Shown here: positions 6,372-48,843 of the stretch, piece by piece
Layout of the letters: every line of letters starts with the position of its first letter
Numbering within the stretch: position 1 is the stretch's first letter
DNA from: a virus
Taxonomy: Duplodnaviria > Heunggongvirae > Uroviricota > Caudoviricetes
IMG/VR virus record: IMGVR_UViG_3300042901_002340
Length of the DNA: 54,850 bases
Direction: 5' to 3' (one strand)
Program-made: the position numbers and the translations under genes
Notes under the pieces: generated by a model
Database searches by the model: none
What the model saw: the letters and a program-made list of their open reading frames with translations, nothing else
Told to the model about the DNA's origin: nothing

Positions 6372-6757
6372 AAAAAATCATTCTCGTCAAATATAATTCT
6401 ATCCCTTCCTGGACTATGCGATATCACATTTTCAACTATTGGCGGTCCTTGTATCATTCTCCTTTCCCATCCATAGGTCATTTCTATTGGATTCGAGTGG
6501 TAGATTGTTTCAACTTCAATGATATCGTCACTTATTCGATGATCTGAGCATCTCATAACTATCTTCCCGCTAATCGGAACGTAGGAATTTGAATAGCCAT
6601 ATTCGAAATTATCATTACCTCTAAATCTTATCTGCGAGATCTCAGTCCTTTGGCATTTTTCACAATGCTCACATGAAAAAACAGCCTTTCTCCCGTCCAA
6701 TATCATCAGACGTATATCATCTCTTTCCCTATGTGGTGAAACCGGTGTGATGTACAT
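6344..6757 (-). CDS. Hypothetical protein with CxxC motifs
   Basis: SCEHCEKC; start coupled to the ligase stop. Confidence 0.65.
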   Translation of the reverse strand: MYITPVSPHRERDDIRLMILDGRKAVFSCEHCEKCQRTEISQIRFRGNDNFEYGYSNSYVPISGKIVMRCSDHRISDDIIEVETIYHSNPIEMTYGWERRMIQGPPIVENVISHSPGRDRIIFDENDFLWILIKKKY

Positions 6758-7899
6758 TACTCCTTTTCCTTAAGTAAGAAATTGTTAGATATAACCTTGA
6801 AGCTTGTCGCCATATCATGGCTTCTAATAACATAACCCTCCCTCTCAGCCGCTACATTAAGTACAGATTTACCCTCAGCAAACTTTAGAAGCTCGTCTAT
6901 TGTTTCTGGCAAGGTGAAATCCTCGTCAATAATAGGCACAGTTTCCAAACCAAGAACCTTAACAGTCAACTTGAATTTTTCTAGAGGTAAATATTCCTGT
7001 GTGTCAATATCAAAGGCATTATAAACTCTAAGAGTTTGTCCCTTGATCTTGTAAGGGTTACCCTGAATACCCTCCCCGATGATTTCCCCTTGGATTGCAA
7101 GATTCCCGCTCATATCCAGCATATTCACCTCGATACCGAGTTCTCTTGCAACCTTCCAGAAGGTATTTTCTTTCTTTGGTCTTTCCACGCCATCATCACA
7201 CATAACCACGCCTTCAACGAATGGTTCAGGACGACAAAGATCGAGATTTCTAGAACAAACACCAAACTCACCATCATGAACATAGAAGGTTGAGGATGAA
7301 CCGTCTAGCTTCTCCGTCATGTAGTATTTTTGAGTCTTCATCTTGTCGTAATTCTTTGCAAGATTTTGAATCCTCTCCTCGTCGGTTTTAGGGATAAAAC
7401 TTGGAAAGTTTCCTTTTGCAACGCCAGCCAATTCAGCAGGCATAGGTGGATCCCACTTAATGATTCCAAGAATATTAGTAACATCTATGCCCTCTTCTAT
7501 CATAAGAGCCCAATCATAGGGTCCTAATTGGTAGACCGGTCCATCAGGGGTTTGTAGGTATCCCAACTTTTCATCCTCTTCCTCGCCTTCCAATATGGAA
7601 AGAGGTAGAATAAGACCCTGCGAAACCTGTCCTCTAAGTTTGATAGTTTTAAGTCTAAATCCCTCATTACCATCTGCCATCTTTCTGTATGAGCTCTTTC
7701 TAAGGAATTCAAATTCCTCCCTAATTGGAAGAAATGAATCCACCTCACAATAGATCACAAAGTCACCAACTTTATGGGCAACCTCCTTGGCAACCACTAC
7801 TTTCCATCCATCAACAATGGCTAATTCGATAAGATCCGCACCTTCGATTGGTTGGAGATCACTAATCTTTCTAATACTTGCAAGTTTCCTTTCGCTCAT
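6757..7899 (-). CDS. RNA ligase, DRB0094/Rnl2-like family
   Basis: RKLASIRKISDLQPIEGADLIE N-terminal OB domain; TEKLDGSS adenylation motif, QGEIIG, EGYVIR, FKVISN. Likely start MSERK at 7899. Confidence 0.9.
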   Translation of the reverse strand: MSERKLASIRKISDLQPIEGADLIELAIVDGWKVVVAKEVAHKVGDFVIYCEVDSFLPIREEFEFLRKSSYRKMADGNEGFRLKTIKLRGQVSQGLILPLSILEGEEEDEKLGYLQTPDGPVYQLGPYDWALMIEEGIDVTNILGIIKWDPPMPAELAGVAKGNFPSFIPKTDEERIQNLAKNYDKMKTQKYYMTEKLDGSSSTFYVHDGEFGVCSRNLDLCRPEPFVEGVVMCDDGVERPKKENTFWKVARELGIEVNMLDMSGNLAIQGEIIGEGIQGNPYKIKGQTLRVYNAFDIDTQEYLPLEKFKLTVKVLGLETVPIIDEDFTLPETIDELLKFAEGKSVLNVAAEREGYVIRSHDMATSFKVISNNFLLKEKE

Positions 7900-8140
7900 T
7901 TTATTTTTTTTTATTTTTATATTATAAACCAACACACCCATCAAGATTGGAATAAATCTTTCTACTACCTAATAACAATAATTGAGGATTCCCCACATAT
8001 CTCGTTCTTCGTAGATATTACCATACTCAACAAACATAACACCTCTTGATAATGTTGCAAGAAATAATGTTTTTTTATCAAAGGTTCATCTCCTGTCTTC
8101 TTACCCGTTTGTCTTTCTGTGTGTTGGTTTCTTTTTATTA

Positions 8141-28868: not shown

Positions 28869-29975
28869 TTATTTTTTTGGGTAATCCTCCCAAAATGGTT
28901 TCTGGTAATCTGGTCTTATTTGGTTCCATATTGATCTAGAATAATCCTTACGACTATTATGATCCAATAGATATCCTGCTAATCTGTGTCCCTCCACCAG
29001 CTCAAAAAACTCCTTGTTATAGGCTTTAAGAACTGGAGAATTTCTATCTAATCTTTCCTCCTCGGTTGGGGTTTGGCTTTTAATCTTCTTTGCTAATAAT
29101 TTATATTCAGCCCTTACTGTTGCTTCTATAAAATTAAAATTTGATTGCAGATCTTGTTCCATGTTTGTAACCCATGCGTCATATTCATCTGGCACATCAA
29201 CCATCAGTGATCTATAATCAGTACCTTCTTTTAGACATCTCCAGATATCTAAGTTCGAGAATCCAGTTAAAACTCCATGGAGTCTAACATATTCCTCGCC
29301 CTTTGCTTTTAATCTAGTACCATCATAGAATCTTATAACAAATCCCTCCTGATTGTCTTTTATCAAGGATTTAATCTTTCTGAGATCTTTTATTCCATCA
29401 TATCTTTTGGCGCATTCAAATCCGGTTCTCTCAGCGATGTCCATAAGTTCAGTATATGGGGTTTCCCTACCTGTGTCGGTATTAAAAGCAGCTAAAAGAA
29501 CTAATTTTTCTTCGTCACCATAGGAGCACACTACCCTGTTTTTTGGGTATATAATTTCAAAAAGAAATGTAAACTTCTCGGAAAAAACCTCCTTATAGGT
29601 TTCATTTCTTTTCAGTATTTCTTGCCCATAAATAGCAACATCGGAATAGAAAGATCCTTGAGTTGTTAGATGCCATTCACCATCATAGTTGAAAAGTATA
29701 CCCAATGACCCATCAAGTTTCTCAAAAACCTCGAATGGCAAATTTGGAATATTAGACTCATCGATATTGAAGAACTTTGGAAAAGTCCGTGCGATAAGAT
29801 TTCCTTCGTTATCCAGAACGGTTCCTCTCATATTCATAGTAACCTCATCCCAGATCCATTCAAACTGACAATCCCGTGAATATTTATAGATTGCTATAGG
29901 AAGTTCTTTATGTTGACATTTATCAACCAATCCCTTAGCTACATACTCGTTAACTTCTTCAATATTATATTTCAT
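28869..29975 (-). CDS. rnlA: T4 Rnl1-like RNA ligase
   Basis: RTFPKFFN, FEKLDGSLGIL, FLFEII, EGFVI, KAKGEEYVRLH. Confidence 0.9.
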   Translation of the reverse strand: MKYNIEEVNEYVAKGLVDKCQHKELPIAIYKYSRDCQFEWIWDEVTMNMRGTVLDNEGNLIARTFPKFFNIDESNIPNLPFEVFEKLDGSLGILFNYDGEWHLTTQGSFYSDVAIYGQEILKRNETYKEVFSEKFTFLFEIIYPKNRVVCSYGDEEKLVLLAAFNTDTGRETPYTELMDIAERTGFECAKRYDGIKDLRKIKSLIKDNQEGFVIRFYDGTRLKAKGEEYVRLHGVLTGFSNLDIWRCLKEGTDYRSLMVDVPDEYDAWVTNMEQDLQSNFNFIEATVRAEYKLLAKKIKSQTPTEEERLDRNSPVLKAYNKEFFELVEGHRLAGYLLDHNSRKDYSRSIWNQIRPDYQKPFWEDYPKK

Positions 29976-39608: not shown

Positions 39609-39630
39609 AATAAATGTAATATTAGATTTG

Positions 39631-39642
39631 GATATATATATC
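39631..39642. promoter_or_regulatory. Palindromic bidirectional candidate late promoter (GATATATATATC)
   Basis: GATATATA reads on both strands, centred between divergent starts at 39608 and 39666. Confidence 0.65.
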
Positions 39643-39665
39643 CACACATAAAAATAATAATAGTT

Positions 39666-40052
39666 ATGATTTATACAAAAATCGACGAGTTTTTATCGGG
39701 CAGTCCAGAGAAAGCGCCAAGCAAACCTGCACCGGTGACTAAACCTGGCACAGCTCCAGGGAAAACCCCACAGAGACCTAGTCCAATTAGAAGAGATAAA
39801 CCAGCTGCTGATCCACAACCAAAAGCAGCTCAAGAAGCTCCATCTAAACCTGCACCTACAATCAAACCAGGTACGACACCAGGGAAAACCCCACAGAGAC
39901 CTAGTCCTATAAGAAGAGATAAACCAGCTGCTGATCCACAGCCAAAAGCAATTGCTAAAGACGTTGTTTCTAGATTCATGGTGGAATTGAGAAAAAATAG
40001 AATTCCATTGGAATTTAATTTACCAAAATTAAAAGCTAAATATAATGATTAA
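39666..40052 (+). CDS. Pro/Lys-rich protein with internal tandem duplication
   Basis: Likely start MIYTKIDEFL at 39666. Confidence 0.75.
   Translation: MIYTKIDEFLSGSPEKAPSKPAPVTKPGTAPGKTPQRPSPIRRDKPAADPQPKAAQEAPSKPAPTIKPGTTPGKTPQRPSPIRRDKPAADPQPKAIAKDVVSRFMVELRKNRIPLEFNLPKLKAKYND
39714..39950 (+). repeat. In-frame tandem duplication: two 114-nt (38 aa) copies, 123-nt period
   Basis: APSKPAP(V/T)(T/I)KPGT(A/T)PGKTPQRPSPIRRDKPAADPQPKA at 39714-39827 and 39837-39950. Confidence 0.9.
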
Positions 40053-41508
40053 GAAGTTTAATGAATATGCAATAGACGAAGCATCATTGCAAGGAAATCC
40101 AGGAATTCCTGGTCAGGGTGGAACTGGTGGAGTACCAGGAAATTATTTACAGGATGTTGAAACAAGAGCACAAAATATAAATGCAGAGTTTCAGAGAAGA
40201 TTCGGTAGAGAAATTCCAATGTTCATGCAACACGTTAGTAGAGCAAGACAAATCCAAAGAGGGCATGAGGATGCACTAGAAAGACTTGCAGTTGATGTTA
40301 TAATGGAACATTATGGTGATATCCTTGATGGTGTAAATCTTAAGATAAAATTACAAAGGGACAGCGAGATTCAGAAAATGATGAAAGACGTACCTGGTGA
40401 ACCCCCAGAGAATCAGATGCTTAAGGCTTTGGAAGACGAGGATATTATATCGGAGGTTCATAGAAGAAAAATTGCTAATAATATAGCACAAGGCATGGCT
40501 AAGAATACCAAATTAATACTTAATCTTGAAGATTGCTCCGATGGGCTTAAAAGAATATTAGGTAATGAACTTGGTGAGGAGTATATTTTATTACTTAATA
40601 AGATATCAGAAATAGCATCATTCTTTGATTGGGCTATACCATTGGAGGTTCAAAAAGAAATGTGGACAAGAGACAAATCCAGATTTTCTGGATCAGTTAA
40701 AGTTGAATGGGATACACCAGAAGATCCAGAAGAATCTGAAAAATTAGCACAAAAGATTATTGATGATCTCATGAATACTGACGAGCCTGATGCTGAAGAT
40801 ATGGAAGATCTAATGGATGCAATAGGGCCAACTATTAATGCCATTGGGACAGAGTTTGTTATGTTGCTACATGAGACAGTAAAAGGTATCTATGAATTGA
40901 TCTCCGCTGCAGCACTACCGAGTGACGATGCGGAAAAAGCTGAAACAATTATAGCAAATACCGATTCATTGGCTGATGAATTAGAGGATCTTAGATTTGG
41001 TCCTGAAATGGCAGCGGATTTAAGGGATTACATTAATGGATTTAAGGAGGTCAATAAAATTAAAAATCTTCAGGAGTATGTTTTTGGGGAGATGATGCGT
41101 ATGCCAGCTAGAGATTTCTTAGAATTATTCAGTGGTATATTATCGGGTACAACGGAAGCAAAAGTACAAGTACAGGAAATAATAGACGGGATAACAGAAA
41201 TGCTTAGCGATTATGAAATGCAAAAAGCGGGTCTTAAAGATGATTCAGATTACGAGGATGATGACGAAGATTATCCTACTCCCGACGAGGAAGAGGCGCC
41301 AGCCCCAGTACCGCAATCCGAAGATGACTATGAAAATATGTCTCAGAGGGAGCTTCAGGAACTAATAGATAAATATCTGGATGCTGGAGATTATACAAAT
41401 CCAGAGCTTACTAAGATAACAAAATACATAAAAGAATCCAAACAAGAACACGTTGCTAATAAGATCAACGAGTGCAGAAATAATAACATGGGTAACGGTT
41501 ATTACTAG
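40045..41508 (+). CDS. Large acidic hypothetical protein with capsid-targeting-like N-terminus
   Basis: 487 aa; starts MIKKFNEYAIDEA; Gly-rich N-terminal segment and Asp/Glu-rich C-terminal segment. Confidence 0.8.
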   Translation: MIKKFNEYAIDEASLQGNPGIPGQGGTGGVPGNYLQDVETRAQNINAEFQRRFGREIPMFMQHVSRARQIQRGHEDALERLAVDVIMEHYGDILDGVNLKIKLQRDSEIQKMMKDVPGEPPENQMLKALEDEDIISEVHRRKIANNIAQGMAKNTKLILNLEDCSDGLKRILGNELGEEYILLLNKISEIASFFDWAIPLEVQKEMWTRDKSRFSGSVKVEWDTPEDPEESEKLAQKIIDDLMNTDEPDAEDMEDLMDAIGPTINAIGTEFVMLLHETVKGIYELISAAALPSDDAEKAETIIANTDSLADELEDLRFGPEMAADLRDYINGFKEVNKIKNLQEYVFGEMMRMPARDFLELFSGILSGTTEAKVQVQEIIDGITEMLSDYEMQKAGLKDDSDYEDDDEDYPTPDEEEAPAPVPQSEDDYENMSQRELQELIDKYLDAGDYTNPELTKITKYIKESKQEHVANKINECRNNNMGNGYY

Positions 41509-43420: not shown

Positions 43421-43510
43421 AACTTATTGTTTATCAATATTCAACAGGAAAAACATAAAAAGTTTCGGTGGAGACCTAAGAAATTTCATAAAAATAAGGG
43501 GGGACGGGGG

Positions 43511-43518
43511 GATATATA
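43511..43518 (+). promoter_or_regulatory. Candidate late promoter GATATATA of the lysis/two-component operon
   Basis: Exact motif 16 nt before ATG 43535, at a strand switch. Confidence 0.6.
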
Positions 43519-43534
43519 GAAGAAAAAACATACT

Positions 43535-44353
43535 ATGATTTTAAAAATTGGATCAACTGGGGATGATGTAAAAAAACTCCAAGTAAAACTAGGCTTGGGT
43601 GCCGATGGTATATTCGGACCAGGTACAGAAAAATCGGTAAAAGCATGGCAAGCTGCTAATGGATTGGTAGCTGATGGTATAGTTGGTGACGGAACATGGG
43701 GAAAAATGTTTAGTGCTGATAATACCACATCGACTTCTACAATTCCAACTAGCTCATTTAAGCTTGAAGCTCTAAAGGGACACATTCCTGAATCTGTGAT
43801 TGCACAAATTCCGGATACAGCAAAAGCTTTCAACATCACAACATCTTTAAGATTGGCTCACTTCCTAGCTCAATGTGGCCACGAAAGTGGAGGATTTAAA
43901 GCTGTTAATGAGAATCTTAACTATTCTGCTGATGGACTTAAGAAAATATTTCCTAAGTACTTTCCAGGAGCATTAAATGAATCTTATGCAAGACAACCAG
44001 AAAAAATTGCTGCAAGAGTTTATGCATCAAGGATGGGTAATGGCGACGAAGCTTCAAAAGAAGGTTTCAAATTCAGGGGTAGAGGCTATATCCAATTAAC
44101 TGGTAAATCAAATTACACGGCCTTCGATAAAATGGTACCGGAAGACATTGTTGCTAATCCAGATTTAGTTGCAACTAAATACCCTTTAGCTTCCGCAGCT
44201 TTCTTCTTTAATTCAAATGGACTTTGGTCTATATGTGACAAAGGAGCAGATGATGCAACAGTTACTGCGGTAACAAAAAGAGTAAATGGTGGAACTATCG
44301 GATTGCCTGACAGATTAAAGCACTTTAAGGAGTATTATGCTCTTCTAAAATAA
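43535..44353 (+). CDS. Endolysin: N-terminal peptidoglycan-binding domain plus GH19 catalytic domain
   Basis: LGADGIFGPGTEKSVKAWQ...GLVADGIVG; HFLAQCGHESGGF, FRGRGYIQLTGKSNY, VTKRVNGG. Confidence 0.92.
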   Translation: MILKIGSTGDDVKKLQVKLGLGADGIFGPGTEKSVKAWQAANGLVADGIVGDGTWGKMFSADNTTSTSTIPTSSFKLEALKGHIPESVIAQIPDTAKAFNITTSLRLAHFLAQCGHESGGFKAVNENLNYSADGLKKIFPKYFPGALNESYARQPEKIAARVYASRMGNGDEASKEGFKFRGRGYIQLTGKSNYTAFDKMVPEDIVANPDLVATKYPLASAAFFFNSNGLWSICDKGADDATVTAVTKRVNGGTIGLPDRLKHFKEYYALLK

Positions 44354-44364
44354 ATTAAATAAAC

Positions 44365-44835
44365 ATGGAAATGATTTCAGAACATCTGTCAATCAAGGAG
44401 GTAACAAAATCTAACACAGCCAAAAGACTAGGTATAGACAATAACCCAACTCCTGAACATTTAGAAAACTTAAAACTTTTAGGTGAAAAAGTTTTTGAAC
44501 CAATAAGAAACCATTTTAAAAAACCAATAGGTGTTTCTTCTGGGTACAGGTCTCAGGCAGTAAACGAAGCAACCCCAGGGTCATCTGCAACATCACAGCA
44601 TTGCAGTGGTGAAGCTCTAGATTTAGATCAGGATGGTCTAAATACCGGGATAACAAATAAAATGGTATTTGATTATATCAAAGAAAACCTTGATTTTGAT
44701 CAACTGATATGGGAATATGGAGATAGTAAAAATCCAGATTGGGTACACGTTTCATATGAATCATCAGGGAGACAAAGAAAACAGGTTCTTAGATGTACAA
44801 GAGTAAACGGGAAACCAAAATACTCACAATATTAA
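44365..44835 (+). CDS. Peptidase M15 family (Zn D-Ala-D-Ala peptidase / endolysin-like)
   Basis: VSSGYRS, SQHCSGEALD, WVHVS. Confidence 0.9.
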   Translation: MEMISEHLSIKEVTKSNTAKRLGIDNNPTPEHLENLKLLGEKVFEPIRNHFKKPIGVSSGYRSQAVNEATPGSSATSQHCSGEALDLDQDGLNTGITNKMVFDYIKENLDFDQLIWEYGDSKNPDWVHVSYESSGRQRKQVLRCTRVNGKPKYSQY

Positions 44836-44859
44836 AAAATAACTAGTTGAAATTCAAAT

Positions 44860-46284
44860 ATGAAGGATTTATTAAAAAATGAATTAATTAATAACCTAGA
44901 AGCGATTAATCGTTCCAATGGGGTTATTGAATTCGACCTTAACGGATATATCATTAAAGTAAATGACCTATTTCTTTCTATTATTGGATTTTTACCAAAC
45001 GAAAGAATAAAATTAATAGGCAAACATCACAGTATTTTTGTTGACCCTGAATATGCAAAGTCCACAGAATATAAAAGGTTCTGGGAATCTTTACGTAATG
45101 GTGAGTATATCGGAGGGGAGTTTCCAAGGGTAAATCGAGAAGGTTCTTTAATTTATTTACAGGCAACCTACAATCCGATTCTTGACGAAAATGGAAAACC
45201 TTATAAAGTTATAAAATACGCTCTGGATGTTACACATATTAAAAAACAGGAACAAGAATTAAAAAATAGACTCAACGCAATTAATTCTTCTAACGCAGTA
45301 ATAGAATTCGATCTTAATGGAATTATATTGGATGCTAATGAAAAATTTCAATCTGTAATGGGGTTTCCTCTAGAAAAAATAGTTGGTAAACATCATAGAG
45401 TTTTTGTAACTGAAAAATTTGAAAATTCTGATGAATATCTTGGACTCTGGAATTCTCTAAGGAATGGAGAATTCATTTCAGGACAATTTGAAAGAATCAA
45501 AAGTGATGGAACTGCGGTATGGCTACAGGCTACTTATAGCCCTATCTTTGATATAGAGGGTAAACCATATAAGATTATGAAAATAGCTACGGATGTAACG
45601 AAAGTCGTAGAACAAAAGAAGGAACTAGAAAAGAAAAATACCTACTTGGAACACGCTTCTAAAATTCTTCGTCATGATATGCATAGTGGTATTAACACGT
45701 ATATTCCAAGAGGAATATCTTCATTAGAAAGAAGATTAACAGAAGATAATATTAAGGACCTAAAGATTGAGGCACCTCTTAAAATGATTAAGGAAGGTCT
45801 TTCACACACACAGAAAGTTTACAAAGGAGTATTTGAATTCACTAATCTAGTTAGACCTAATGCTACTCTAAATAAAGTTGAATGCGATTTATCAGAAATA
45901 CTAGATTCCTATCTAAGATCTACTGCTTATCGTCATCAAGTGATTATAGAAAAATTGGGCAAGGAGATGGTAAACGAAGCACTCTTCTGTACTGCAATCG
46001 ATAATCTTATTCGTAATGGTTTAAAATACAATGATAGCCCATCAAAATTTGTTAAAATATACAGGAAAAATAATGCCATATACGTAGAGGATAACGGTAG
46101 AGGTTTAAGTTCGGATGATTTTAAAGAACTTGCAGAACCGTACACTCGTAAAGAAGACCAAACGGAAGATGGCACGGGATTAGGTCTAAATATTTGCATA
46201 GCAATATTAGAGGAACATGGATACTCAATAGGATGTGATAAATTACCTGAAATTGGAACTCAAATGAAAATCAAATTAAAATAA
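44860..46284 (+). CDS. Soluble sensor histidine kinase with two PAS/PAC domains
   Basis: Two repeats AIN.SN.VIEFDLNG...LQATY.PI.D..GKPYK. H-box LRHDM, N-box IDNLIRNGLKYN, G1 VEDNGRG, G2 GTGLGL. No TM segment. Confidence 0.92.
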   Translation: MKDLLKNELINNLEAINRSNGVIEFDLNGYIIKVNDLFLSIIGFLPNERIKLIGKHHSIFVDPEYAKSTEYKRFWESLRNGEYIGGEFPRVNREGSLIYLQATYNPILDENGKPYKVIKYALDVTHIKKQEQELKNRLNAINSSNAVIEFDLNGIILDANEKFQSVMGFPLEKIVGKHHRVFVTEKFENSDEYLGLWNSLRNGEFISGQFERIKSDGTAVWLQATYSPIFDIEGKPYKIMKIATDVTKVVEQKKELEKKNTYLEHASKILRHDMHSGINTYIPRGISSLERRLTEDNIKDLKIEAPLKMIKEGLSHTQKVYKGVFEFTNLVRPNATLNKVECDLSEILDSYLRSTAYRHQVIIEKLGKEMVNEALFCTAIDNLIRNGLKYNDSPSKFVKIYRKNNAIYVEDNGRGLSSDDFKELAEPYTRKEDQTEDGTGLGLNICIAILEEHGYSIGCDKLPEIGTQMKIKLK

Positions 46285-46301
46285 ACATAACATAAACAAA
46301 A

Positions 46302-46733
46302 ATGATTGATTCAATTTTATTGGTAGATGACGAAAGTCTCTTCCACCTAGTTTTCGAAGACGCTTGCAGTCTTTTAGATATTTCGCTTACACTTGAAGGT
46401 GTAGATAGCTCAGATCGAGCTGCAAGCCTTTTTCAAGATTGGCAAACAAATCCAGAAGGAAAACCTGAATGTGTATTTGTGGATTTAAACATCATAGGAT
46501 CCTCTTATGATGGGATAGAGCTTATTCGTAAGATTAATTTCGAATATGGTAACAACGTAGTTATAGGAATTATATCATCATCTAATGAACCAACCGAGCA
46601 AGCAAAAGCGGTTAAAGCAGGAGCTCAGTTCTGGATAATCAAGTCAGATGAAATAGAACCTAGACTGGAGGAATTCAAAAAAGATTTCGAGGGTTACAAA
46701 AATAGAACCGCTCCATTTAAAATCTACAAGTAA
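46302..46733 (+). CDS. Stand-alone (CheY-like) response regulator receiver
   Basis: ILLVDD, phospho-acceptor VFVDLN, IISSS, conserved Lys in WIIK; no output domain. Confidence 0.9.
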   Translation: MIDSILLVDDESLFHLVFEDACSLLDISLTLEGVDSSDRAASLFQDWQTNPEGKPECVFVDLNIIGSSYDGIELIRKINFEYGNNVVIGIISSSNEPTEQAKAVKAGAQFWIIKSDEIEPRLEEFKKDFEGYKNRTAPFKIYK

Positions 46734-46736
46734 ACA

Positions 46737-47330
46737 ATGAAGGTAGATAAAAAAATAAGAGATTGGTTATTAGACGTTCAATCTAAAAATAAAATATTTT
46801 TGGAAGGGAACCTTCTGAAAGTTATAGAATCCGATCCAGAAGATGCAGATTTTATTAAGTATATTGAAGATGCAAATACTAAAGATAAAGATGCTCGTAG
46901 GAGAAGATTAGATGTTACTAAACAGATACAAGAGCATAATAAGAAATTATTAGCTGCACAGGAGGAGAATCTTAATATAAACGAGGAACTTAAAATAGCC
47001 TTAGGATCTGCTGAGGAAGAGAGAAAAAATGCTGAATTGTCAAAAATCGAAGCAGAAAAAGCTAAAGATGCTGCATTAATAGATTTAGACATTATACAAA
47101 AGCGTTCACAAACGGAACTAATTAGTACGATAGTTAAAGTAGCACTGATCGTAATTATGAGTGTTGGTCTAATAACAACCGTTATGTACAGTATTGCGAT
47201 GTTTACCGGGAAAGACACACAAATAATTGGATCTACCTGGTCAAACATGTTTGGTATCCTACTTACCAATGCCTTCTCGATAGTTGGAACCATTATGGGT
47301 GTTAAATATGCTTCAGAAAAAAAGGACTAG
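46737..47330 (+). CDS. Coiled-coil protein with two C-terminal TM helices
   Basis: Long heptad region, then IVKVALIVIMSVGLITTVMYSIAMF and MFGILLTNAFSIVGTIMGV. Confidence 0.75.
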   Translation: MKVDKKIRDWLLDVQSKNKIFLEGNLLKVIESDPEDADFIKYIEDANTKDKDARRRRLDVTKQIQEHNKKLLAAQEENLNINEELKIALGSAEEERKNAELSKIEAEKAKDAALIDLDIIQKRSQTELISTIVKVALIVIMSVGLITTVMYSIAMFTGKDTQIIGSTWSNMFGILLTNAFSIVGTIMGVKYASEKKD

Positions 47331-47351
47331 ATTTTAAAATCTAGTCCTTTT
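47320..47351. terminator. Bidirectional terminator; perfect 32-nt palindrome including the TAG stop
   Basis: aaaaggactagatttt|aaaatctagtcctttt between convergent genes. Confidence 0.8.
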
Positions 47352-47368
47352 ATTAATCAATCAATTTA

Positions 47369-47698
47369 TTATTTACCTGTACCTATATTGTCGGCTTTAA
47401 ATAAATAGGGCATCAATGAGGCTATTGACCCAACCCAGAATTGCCATTCATCAGCTGTTATATTGAGGAAATTTATTAAAAATCCACCAGCAAAAGATAG
47501 TGTTTGTCTAATGGCTCCAGCTATCATATCACTGGTTGCTGTTTTCTCTCTAATACTCCAGTATAGGGAAACTAATCCCATTAATATACCACTTCCGGTT
47601 TCAATTGATACCGAATCAGTAAGCCCCTTCATGGCTAAATATCCACCAATTATTGACAATAAATGACGGATTAAACTTGTAATTTGTTCTTTACTCAT
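47369..47698 (-). CDS. Putative holin (Pam3 gp28-like), internally duplicated
   Basis: MSKEQITSLIRHLLSIIGG...YWSIREK followed by a second copy AGAIRQTLSFAGG; about four TM segments; next to the endolysin operon. Confidence 0.6.
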   Translation of the reverse strand: MSKEQITSLIRHLLSIIGGYLAMKGLTDSVSIETGSGILMGLVSLYWSIREKTATSDMIAGAIRQTLSFAGGFLINFLNITADEWQFWVGSIASLMPYLFKADNIGTGK

Positions 47699-47738
47699 AT
47701 TTTTATATTTTTTTAGTTACCACACGTGTTGGTAACCA

Positions 47739-47746
47739 TATATATC
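47739..47746 (-). promoter_or_regulatory. Candidate late promoter GATATATA (holin-like gene)
   Basis: tatatatc on + strand. Confidence 0.55.
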
Positions 47747-47770
47747 CCATTAATAAAGGTACATTGGATT

Positions 47771-47778
47771 GATATATA
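47771..47778 (+). promoter_or_regulatory. Candidate late promoter GATATATA
   Basis: Exact motif 9 nt before ATG 47788. Confidence 0.6.
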
Positions 47779-47787
47779 AAAGCAAAA

Positions 47788-47928
47788 ATGGCTAAAGCAA
47801 AATCATCATCAGAAAACAAATTTGTATCTAAATCAGCTAAATCCTGTGATCGTCACTCGAAAAGCAACGAATCTAAAAATAAGAATTCTAAGAATTATAA
47901 GAAAGCTTATAGAGGACAAGGAAAATAA
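47788..47928 (+). CDS. Small basic protein (46 aa), below track cutoff
   Basis: MAKAKSSSENKFVSKSAKSCDRHSKSNESKNKNSKNYKKAYRGQGK; own promoter motif and terminator. Confidence 0.75.
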   Translation: MAKAKSSSENKFVSKSAKSCDRHSKSNESKNKNSKNYKKAYRGQGK

Positions 47929-47956
47929 AAAAGCCGAGCAATTGCTCGGCTTTTTT
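47927..47956. terminator. Bidirectional intrinsic terminator
   Basis: aaaaagccgagc-aatt-gctcggcttttt. Confidence 0.85.
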
Positions 47957-47965
47957 ATGAATAAT

Positions 47966-48250
47966 TTACTTGGTGTAGCTATCAATCTTAGCAACCAGTA
48001 CCGCTTTGGATTGCAATCCAGTAACTCTCTCAAGTACCTCGCCATCCTTTTCGAAAATAATAGTTGGGATGCTTCTAATTGAATATTTTTCAGCTAGTTC
48101 CCTATTTTCATCAACATCGATTTTTTCAACAATAACACCAGATTTTTCACCGTCCCCGTACTCATCCATAAGATCCTTAATGATCGGAGCTAGTGTTCTG
48201 CAGGGCCCACACCACGTGGCATTAAAGTCCATTACTTTTAATTTTGACAT
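47966..48250 (-). CDS. trxA: Thioredoxin
   Basis: DFNATWCGPC, IDVDENRELAEKYSIRSIPT. Confidence 0.95.
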   Translation of the reverse strand: MSKLKVMDFNATWCGPCRTLAPIIKDLMDEYGDGEKSGVIVEKIDVDENRELAEKYSIRSIPTIIFEKDGEVLERVTGLQSKAVLVAKIDSYTK

Positions 48251-48270
48251 AATTTATTTATTTTTATTCT

Positions 48271-48843
48271 CTATATATTATCAGTTAAAAAACTGATTAT
48301 TTTATCTTTTATCCCGGATTGTTTTATACCCTCACTCATTTTAGGAGTAAGAACGAAATTTGCAACTCCCCAATCCTTCCGCATTGACATATCAAGATCA
48401 TCAACAGCTACCCAATGTGTTATTTCGGGAAAGTCCTTAACATATTGATTTATCTCAAAAGATCTTTCCTGCTCATACATTAAACTTCTATTCCATCCAA
48501 AGCTTTCTGGCTTCTCGCAGCCGATGAAACTTCTAGTGACAGCAATAGGTCTTCTAATAATACCTTGTGAATTATAATAATCACCAAGTTCCTCTAGTGT
48601 TGCATGTTTTTTCCAATCCGAGCTTACAACAATTTCAGCACCAGTTTCAATAAGTATTTGATTCAGTATTTTAACAGCTTTTTTATCAAAATCATCAAAG
48701 CGATGAAACACATCTACTGTACTCCATGATAATGCATCGGCTTCAGGATGAAGCTTTCTATATTTATTAAATTTGCGTGTTCTACCTCCCCAATTATTAG
48801 AGAGACAAATTACGCCATCGTTGTCCAAAAAAATTATTTTCAT
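48271..48843 (-). CDS. HAD-superfamily phosphatase, RNA-repair 'Swiss army knife' type
   Basis: IIFLDNDGVI, IVVSSDW, WVAVDD. Confidence 0.8.
   Translation of the reverse strand: MKIIFLDNDGVICLSNNWGGRTRKFNKYRKLHPEADALSWSTVDVFHRFDDFDKKAVKILNQILIETGAEIVVSSDWKKHATLEELGDYYNSQGIIRRPIAVTRSFIGCEKPESFGWNRSLMYEQERSFEINQYVKDFPEITHWVAVDDLDMSMRKDWGVANFVLTPKMSEGIKQSGIKDKIISFLTDNI

Follow-up and report, generated by a model that had tools for sequence, protein, structure and literature searches.

A phage-encoded kinase-receiver pair with a membrane hairpin as its predicted output, a candidate for tuning lysis in uncultured aquatic phages

The 54,850-nt stretch of viral DNA recorded in IMG/VR as IMGVR_UViG_3300042901_002340 (Caudoviricetes; hereafter the window, with all positions counted from its start) contains, at 43511-47351, a unit in which lysis genes are followed by genes for a PAS-PAS histidine kinase, a stand-alone receiver and a membrane protein combining a coiled coil with a hairpin of 2 transmembrane (TM) segments. 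Judging from the sequences, the latter 3 proteins would form a phage-encoded, non-transcriptional signalling device which has the membrane hairpin as its output and most likely tunes the lysis step, a reading to which we assign a probability of about 0.5. Lysis timing sets burst size and phage fitness, and the known ways in which phages adjust it are, to our knowledge, few, comprising lysis inhibition in T4 and, where induction is concerned, control by quorum or arbitrium signals. If true, the proposed device would be a new and apparently common solution for lysis timing, in which swappable sensors feed one fixed membrane output in hundreds of uncultured aquatic phage genomes, and a rare case of a virus encoding its own His-Asp phosphorelay. 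A handful of genes makes it testable whether a virulent phage can read the state of its host or environment late in infection and shift the moment of lysis, and the compact PAS-to-membrane switch might be of use in synthetic biology.

The kinase (474 aa; 44860-46284, plus strand) is recognized by the Pfam models PAS_3, PAS_9 and HATPase_c (the last with E = 7e-14) and comprises PAS-A (residues ~31-120), PAS-B (~143-249), a DHp domain with H272 and a CA domain (376-473). The DHp domain is divergent, with no match to the Pfam HisKA model, and residues 250-460 align to the DHp-CA core of HK853-type kinases (2c2a/3dge). The catalytic boxes, namely, H272 in RHDMHSG, N386, D411-x-G-x-G415 and G438-x-G-x-G442, are near-invariant among 88 homologues; the H-box histidine on the DHp domain and the N, G1 and G2 boxes of the CA domain are those of class I (HisKA-type) kinases. 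No TM segment is predicted in the window kinase, which is therefore considered soluble. The receiver (143 aa; 46302-46733, plus strand) matches PF00072 (Response_reg; E = 2e-8; 34.6 bits, compared to the cut-off of 30.2), consistent with a stand-alone CheY-like protein, and carries no output domain, only a conserved tail of ~25 aa. Its residues D9, D10, D61, S92 and K114 are invariant in 31 diverse homologues, as are 59 alignment columns in total. Altogether, the H, N, G1 and G2 boxes of the kinase and the catalytic residues of the receiver are about 98-100% conserved, bearing out the original prediction, made from the window alone, that the kinase has all catalytic boxes and the receiver intact DD/D/S/K residues. 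These results support the view that the two proteins represent a complete conserved two-component pair with predicted phosphotransfer.

Virtually without exception, 116 non-redundant loci of uncultured viruses keep the order kinase-receiver-membrane protein on one strand, and in 90 of 107 loci the receiver gene shares its last 1 or 4 nt with the membrane protein gene (gap of −1 or −4). Pattern scans of IMG/VR identified the receiver in at least 573 stretches, the membrane protein in 251 and very close copies of the window kinase in 3. Receiver identity is 79-97% in the best 80 of the at least 573 stretches, and the membrane protein is 52-87% identical across contigs whose receiver falls in that range. 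The same order was found in 4 three-gene loci on contigs binned into metagenome-assembled genomes (MAGs), with membrane protein identity of only 43-47%. Searches for cultured relatives by tblastn, using the kinase, receiver, membrane protein and hairpin against 50,697 phage records, returned nothing relevant, and we found no description in the literature of a phage two-component system within a lysis cassette. Jumbo phages have a receiver termed "cREC", which is explicitly stated to have no relation to histidine kinases (PMC7824862). The parts, two-component signalling and lysis cassettes, are known in kind; the novelty lies in how they are combined, in an output that would act post-translationally at the membrane and in a hairpin family confined to phages. 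In 10 relatives, a full-length Hsp70/DnaK gene (E = 3e-258) lies a few genes from the trio (L134:3366-5216 and 9 other loci).

The most informative evidence on the output of the pathway comes from a natural fusion, a single open reading frame (ORF) of ~368 aa in which PAS-PAS domains are joined to the distal part of the coiled coil and the TM hairpin. First seen in L170-L173, it was subsequently recovered from 281 IMG/VR stretches, where a complete lysis cassette usually surrounds it (L172:1998-3104, plus strand; L171:7230-8348; L173:7215-8330; L175-L254). The PAS-PAS part is 48% identical to residues 1-268 of the window kinase and the hairpin part is 62% identical to residues 95-194 of the membrane protein; the shared module spans residues ~98-197 of the latter and 252-368 of the fusion (hhalign probability 100%, E = 6e-46). 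No kinase core (DHp/CA) or receiver was detected across the 80 fusion loci examined. The AlphaFold2 (AF2) model of the fusion contains 2 confident PAS domains and a continuous helix (residues 246-327) running from PAS-B into the first TM segment (TM1), with a predicted local distance difference test score (pLDDT) of ~60. Since the fusion connects PAS-PAS directly to the hairpin without kinase core or receiver, the hairpin would be the output of the pathway, and the N-terminal ~97 residues of the stand-alone protein, which fill the place of the sensor in the fusion, are therefore the obvious candidate docking site for the receiver.

Complex prediction is in line with such docking: residues 1-125 of the membrane protein and the receiver gave a median score of 0.43, compared to 0.01 for the best control, with runs sharing at least 85% of contacts and a partner pLDDT of at least 87, which we regard as weak support. 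In calibration, 58 of the 80 solved complexes passed the mark, as did 2 of 110 mismatched pairs, and the passes with scores of 0.60 or lower included only 7 of the 80 solved complexes and both mismatches; these counts are only a rough guide here, the alignments being our own. Collectively, the invariant order, the stop-start overlap, the natural fusion and, weakly, the complex prediction support the assignment of the coiled-coil/2-TM protein (hereafter the output protein) as the output of the kinase-receiver pair. The proposal that the receiver passes the signal by contact to a membrane effector thus stands in part, with the invariant trio, the fusion and the weak complex score in its favor, whereas direct contact of the module with a holin is doubtful.

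The output protein (197 aa; 46737-47330, plus strand) belongs to no Pfam family. Its TM segments are predicted at residues ~128-146 and ~171-189, and in the AF2 model (pLDDT 88) a single long helix (37-157) continues into TM1 and is followed by a return helix (162-192). The protein consists of a conserved N-terminal domain, a coiled coil which varies in length by up to ~30 residues, and an almost invariant loop and second TM segment (TM2) with the sequence DTQIIGSTWSNMF...GTIMGVKY. One face of TM2 is lined with small or polar residues (N170, G173, T177, S181, G184/T185 and G188), which would suit tight helix packing or pore lining. The fold search of the Protein Data Bank with the model gave no match, and comparison with Pfam and PHROG lysis families at permissive thresholds yielded none of these, only phrog_1544, of unknown function (E = 0.001-0.005). 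The family includes 6187 database clusters at 90% identity, none of them informatively named; its NCBI members come with neither names nor accessions, and look-alike clusters in the Atlas are labelled 100% viral under an uninformative automatic name. An exhaustive search with the hairpin recovered 104 representatives at 50% identity, in only 2 size classes, 130-260 aa and 360-371 aa. The output protein hence defines a new phage-only family, a large group of viral proteins (>6,000 clusters) that has remained without annotation. Eight MAG-binned contigs carry the module (L167-L174), each from a different phylum, with the labels Verrucomicrobia, Bdellovibrionota, Gemmatimonadota, Saccharibacteria, Ignavibacteria, Flavobacteriales, Saprospira and Alphaproteobacteria. 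Given 8 different phyla for 8 contigs, host assignment from MAG labels was rejected, and the contigs are most likely mis-binned phage DNA.

In the relatives, kinases range from 297 to 720 aa, with a highly variable sensor end, and 77 of 88 contain 1-3 TM segments; the soluble sensor of the window is a minority input among them. PAS-B of the window kinase aligns to MmoS (3ewk, E = 8e-13), YtvA/LOV, phototropins and Aer. Both PAS domains contain GKHH(S/R)(I/V)FV, in which the Cys of the LOV pattern (GxNCRFLQ) is missing, and they also appear to lack the RHPD motif of Aer. The idea that the PAS domains sense cytoplasmic redox state or oxygen was accordingly not borne out: the likeness to flavin-binding PAS domains is at the family level only, the LOV cysteine is missing and the kinase adjoining the receiver is membrane-bound in 77 of 88 relatives. 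A second kinase is often present in relatives, with an exported 205-aa protein between the two. In L099, L109, L136, L162 and ~19 other loci, 2 kinases precede the receiver and flank a signal-peptide protein of 200-212 aa, an arrangement which suggests a periplasmic co-sensor and dual input.

In the window, the trio forms the distal part of a five-ORF plus-strand unit (43535-47330) with intergenic spacing of 11, 24, 17 and 3 nt, so that the gaps and coordinates given by the original prediction agree with the ORF list. The first gene encodes a 272-aa endolysin with PG_binding_1 and GH19 domains (43535-44353, plus strand; PF01471, E = 7e-12; PF00182, Glyco_hydro_19, E = 3e-8; phrog_181 endolysin, E = 9e-68) and the second a 156-aa Peptidase_M15_3 protein, probably a second lysin (44365-44835, plus strand; PF08291, E = 2e-15; phrog_894 endolysin, E = 3e-31). 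A 109-aa holin of the Pam3 gp28 family (47369-47698, minus strand; PF23987, Phage_holin_10, E = 2e-19) converges on the unit. Pfam and PHROG matches, together with TM and structure predictions, thus agree with the gene order originally read from the sequence, from endolysin and M15 peptidase through kinase and receiver to the coiled-coil/2-TM protein, with the convergent holin-like gene. A stretch of 4.2 kb accommodates the GH19 endolysin, the M15 peptidase and holin_10, which constitute a lysis cassette of the Gram-negative type; no spanin candidate was identified in the window. Between the convergent units lies a palindromic, probably bidirectional terminator (47320-47351) with a perfect 14-bp stem (−17.7 kcal/mol, z = −5.1; none of 200 shuffles equally stable), which overlaps the stop codon of the fifth ORF and is the strongest fold within 43500-47400. 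The terminator was therefore recovered as predicted, and the only other notable fold of the unit is an imperfect stem (−15.6 kcal/mol) near 46390-46440 in the receiver ORF.

The unit begins, as had been noted, at the motif GATATATA (43511), which here is part of a longer promoter-like motif, GGGATATATA (43509-43518, plus strand), located 16 nt before the endolysin start codon. The second and only other exact copy of GGGATATATA in the window (47739-47748, minus strand) lies ~40 nt before the holin start and is followed by a 9-bp hairpin in the 5′ leader. The endolysin unit and the holin thus have both the GGGATATATA motif and the terminator in common. In related loci, 7 of 9 copies of GGGATATATA are intergenic, 14-22 nt before the ATG of the kinase (3 copies), the endolysin (3 copies) or another gene (1 copy), and L027 and L127 each contain one copy before the kinase and one before the endolysin; this placement would be in line with a promoter function. 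For GATATATA, the count of 8 copies in the window, compared to 4.8 expected, is not significant, but the placement is non-random: 7 of the 8 are correctly oriented and precede the start of a listed ORF by 4-40 nt, including at the heads of other plus-strand islands, and for the eighth, the plus-strand half of the palindrome at 39631, an in-frame start just downstream could not be confirmed. Based on this motif placement, the endolysin-to-output unit and the holin would fall into a single promoter-like class, and they are directed toward the same terminator.

Across relatives, lysis-type genes (GH19, M15, holin_4_1, holin_10, spanin-like or an 82-aa 2-TM gene) are adjacent to the fusion gene on the same strand in 71 of 80 fused loci, and a recurrent cassette consists of the 82-aa 2-TM protein, the fusion, GH19, holin_4_1, an N-anchored coiled-coil ORF and a signal-peptide ORF. 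Among three-gene loci with sufficiently long flanks, a GH19/M15 lysin is present within 2.5 kb in 25 of 51 and, at the wider limit of 4 kb, in 13-14 of 26. Lysins pile up less than 2 kb from the trio and none lies at 2-4 kb, although 50-86 loci reach that far; the distance counts are inflated, as some genes were matched by 2 seeds, but the shape of the distribution stands. The lysin may be located upstream of the trio on the plus or minus strand, or downstream of it. Two Pfam-annotated relatives illustrate this variability, one with the order GH19, 197-aa protein, kinase, receiver, output protein, 83-aa protein and holin_4_1, and the other with kinase, 212-aa protein, kinase, receiver, output protein, 82-aa protein, GH19 and M15. 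On the tree of receiver and output proteins, lysin adjacency changes at least 14 times (19-23 in the five shuffled sets listed) and the arrangement at least 21 times; because these changes recur, the linkage to lysis genes does not appear to be one inherited accident. The expected synteny of the module with lysis genes is therefore found in most fused loci and in about half of the three-gene loci, no such gene being recognizable within 2.5-4 kb in the other half. These data support an association of the module with lysis genes that is far above chance and persists through rearrangements. The 82-83-aa protein adjoins the module in 34 three-gene loci and most fused loci, and holin_4_1 recurs too. 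With 2 TM segments, a charged C-terminus and no family (L121:9359-9610, minus strand; L172:1748-1996, plus strand), this protein, absent from the window, is the most faithful small neighbor of the hairpin protein and a candidate holin or antiholin, possibly its partner.

In the mechanism that we propose, the PAS domains would read a cytoplasmic ligand or state, upon which the kinase would autophosphorylate at H272 and transfer the phosphoryl group to D61 of the receiver. The receiver would then dock on the N-terminal part of the output protein (residues 1 to ~97), and the resulting change would run down the coiled coil into TM1, altering hairpin packing or oligomerization. Membrane integrity or energization would be altered in turn, so that holin triggering and endolysin release are advanced or delayed, and the module would in this way gate lysis. 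The membrane effect could be a leak, depolarization or an oligomeric pore, or could involve a conserved host membrane component; either could shift the trigger of any holin. Neighboring holins belong to at least 3 unrelated families (holin_10, holin_4_1 and the 82-aa protein) and the hairpin is near-invariant, and for this reason we think it more likely that the module acts on the membrane itself, or on some conserved component of the host, than on one particular holin. Tentatively, the hairpin protein may be the founder of a new class of lysis effectors that is restricted to phages, is gated by signals and accepts interchangeable inputs (fused PAS domains, or soluble and membrane kinases acting via the receiver). 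Large aquatic T4-like Bacteroidota phages would in that case run a programmable lysis clock, and theirs would be the first viral His-Asp phosphorelay to act post-translationally on the lysis step.

Several observations weigh against a function in lysis. About half of the well-flanked three-gene loci have no recognizable lysis gene within 2.5-4 kb, and in 12 of 26 well-flanked loci the neighbors are DNA-metabolism genes instead; loci without lysis genes have next to them genes for deoxynucleoside monophosphate kinase, ribonucleotide reductase (RNR), NusG, a 5′-3′ exonuclease or a tRNA-synthetase-like protein. In one 192-kb contig, a distance of ~51 kb separates the trio from Amidase_2, the sole lysin candidate found there. 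Searches of 4 contigs that appeared to lack a lysin gave nothing with the window GH19 and M15 proteins, and a Pfam GH19 scan of them returned no match, controls included, and is hence uninformative; Phage_lysozyme and SLT searches of such contigs also gave nothing, and Amidase_2 yielded one solid distant match and one weak match. The output protein matches no holin, antiholin or spanin family and no solved fold. Furthermore, non-lysis genes are preceded by GATATATA as well, so that the motif would denote a temporal class rather than lysis in particular; gene order shared by related phages does not count as independent evidence, and the complex prediction gives weak support. The trio could accordingly be a real sensor-to-membrane device with a different job. 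It might serve in superinfection exclusion, reshape the energetics or transport of the host membrane during takeover, or control an envelope machine, and its proximity to lysis genes would then reflect a shared expression class or a "membrane gene" neighborhood. This alternative, which we consider somewhat unlikely, accommodates the half of three-gene loci that sit among DNA-metabolism genes, the amidase candidate at 51 kb and the unrelated genes preceded by GATATATA; an invariant hairpin next to variable holins would fit a conserved host target, and most receiver-adjacent kinases are membrane sensors that could read periplasmic events. It sits poorly with the lysis genes flanking 71 of 80 fused loci and with the clustering of lysins within 2 kb of the trio in several arrangements; in addition, exclusion proteins are typically early, whereas the motif of the unit is common to endolysin and holin.

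Another possibility is that the hairpin protein serves as a holin in its own right, with 2 TM segments that form a signal-gated pore and a cytoplasmic domain for sensing or docking. It would be triggered directly by the receiver or PAS domains, with the other small membrane proteins being accessory. An N-in/C-in topology with 2 TM segments, a short charged C-terminal tail, the small/polar face of TM2 and a typical holin position beside endolysins would all fit, and the T4 holin T carries a large regulatory domain. Nevertheless, the protein is long for such a role (197 aa), recognized holins co-occur with it (holin_10 in the window and holin_4_1 in relatives), it resembles no holin family and it is also found away from endolysins, making this interpretation unlikely. 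That the true target of the receiver is a host component (kinase, phosphatase, motor or polymerase), the TM protein being merely a co-encoded anchor or unrelated neighbor, would account for the unusual conservation of the receiver (79-97%, compared to 52-87% for the TM protein), suggestive of an additional, slowly evolving partner. We consider this quite improbable, given that the fusion shows a sensor able to drive the hairpin without any receiver, that receiver and TM protein are translationally coupled almost everywhere, and that the complex prediction weakly supports their pairing. Finally, two-component genes are typically cellular and the nearest solved receiver structure is from Cytophaga (3ilh, E = 5e-7), as would be expected of a captured host operon (moron) that has no phage role or is decaying. 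Such an origin is barely credible for a module with hundreds to thousands of viral copies, invariant catalytic residues and only 2 architectures among the 104 representatives; moreover, no genuine cellular context was found for the hairpin family, whose only occurrences in MAGs are the 8 likely mis-binned contigs. Tuning of lysis by the kinase, receiver and hairpin thus remains the reading that we prefer.

Among known systems, T4 lysis inhibition (holin T with the antiholins RI and RIII) is similar in that, in a T4-type phage, a sensed signal shifts lysis time post-translationally at the membrane via holin triggering, as proposed here, and the membrane- or periplasm-facing kinases and the exported protein of the relatives could read periplasmic events as RI does. 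However, the module resembles T, RI and RIII neither in sequence nor in fold, and the output protein has no family or fold match to known antiholins, including those of the T4 RI-RIII type. In the present case, the signal would travel by His-Asp phosphorelay or PAS fusion to an effector made up of a cytoplasmic coiled coil and a 2-TM hairpin. LytSR with CidAB-LrgAB of Staphylococcus and Bacillus likewise ties a two-component system to holin- and antiholin-like membrane proteins that control murein hydrolase activity and lysis, but is cellular, and LytR is a DNA-binding transcription regulator with a LytTR domain; by contrast, the receiver described here has no output domain, the kinase is a soluble PAS-PAS protein instead of a 5TM-Lyt sensor, and the output would be a directly coupled membrane protein. 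Similar to CheY acting on FliM, a receiver-only protein with intact DD/D/S/K residues must act by phosphorylation-dependent protein-protein contact, although the partner here is a phage membrane hairpin of a new family rather than the motor switch, and the kinase is of class I (HisKA type) rather than CheA. VqmA-Phi of vibriophage VP882 is another PAS sensor of a phage that lets a small-molecule or state cue influence the time of host killing, but it is a one-component transcription factor for the lysogeny-to-lysis switch, whereas the present module is from an apparently T4-like phage, has no DNA-binding domain and would have a membrane output. In the XhlA/XhlB/XlyA system of PBSX, the lysis cassette encodes, beside holin and lysin, a membrane protein whose N-terminal part forms a coiled coil in the cytoplasm and whose C-terminal part is a TM anchor. 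The likeness is architectural only, XhlA having one TM segment and no known signalling input, and the XhlA Pfam model did not match the hairpin protein; the match obtained (E = 0.01) was to a neighboring spanin-like ORF.

Other lineages carry TATTTAT or GATAAATAATAAAAA before the cassette, often directly after a terminator. GATAAATAATAAAAA resembles the T4 late promoter TATAAATA and is located upstream of the kinase in L050, L078, L080, L089 and L112 and of several genes in L164. ATATTTAT, which precedes the cassette in other lineages, was neither enriched nor informative in the window. An attempt to tie the GATATATA class to late genes via relatives with the T4 portal gene failed, those relatives being devoid of GATATATA, and a sigma-70 promoter and terminator scan gave counts at chance level with a model that is ill-suited to Bacteroidota-type promoters. 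The hairpin in the holin 5′ leader (47713-47736, minus strand; 9 bp), between GGGATATATA and the start codon, is weak (−9.7 kcal/mol, z = −1.9), and could, at most weakly, affect holin translation. A third GATATATA (47771, plus strand) diverges from the putative holin promoter. Downstream of it is a lysine-rich ORF of 46 aa (47788-47928), at the end of which lies a strong terminator hairpin of 15 bp (47925-47958); this unit (47771-47958) could produce a small basic peptide or a non-coding transcript. The palindrome GGATATATATATCC (39629-39644) places the motif on both strands at the divergent junction between a 564-aa minus-strand gene and a plus-strand island (40045-41508), and neither of the 2 large proteins flanking it matched a family.

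The entire window is of phage origin, with mostly small minus-strand genes, a Dda-like helicase, 2 RNA ligases and a clamp-loader-like ATPase, and contigs of close relatives of the cassette also carry Portal_T4, DNA_pol_B, PhoH and RNR genes. A DNA search of phage records found only similarity of the GH19 gene to Flavobacterium and Cellulophaga phages, which, along with the Cytophaga structure nearest to the receiver, is consistent with a T4-like phage of Bacteroidota. The thioredoxin, the protein with a HAD_SAK_2 domain (as in "Swiss Army Knife" RNA-repair proteins) and the 2 RNA ligases (47966-48843, 6757-7944 and 28869-29975, all on the minus strand) jointly suggest an RNA-repair toolkit in this phage.

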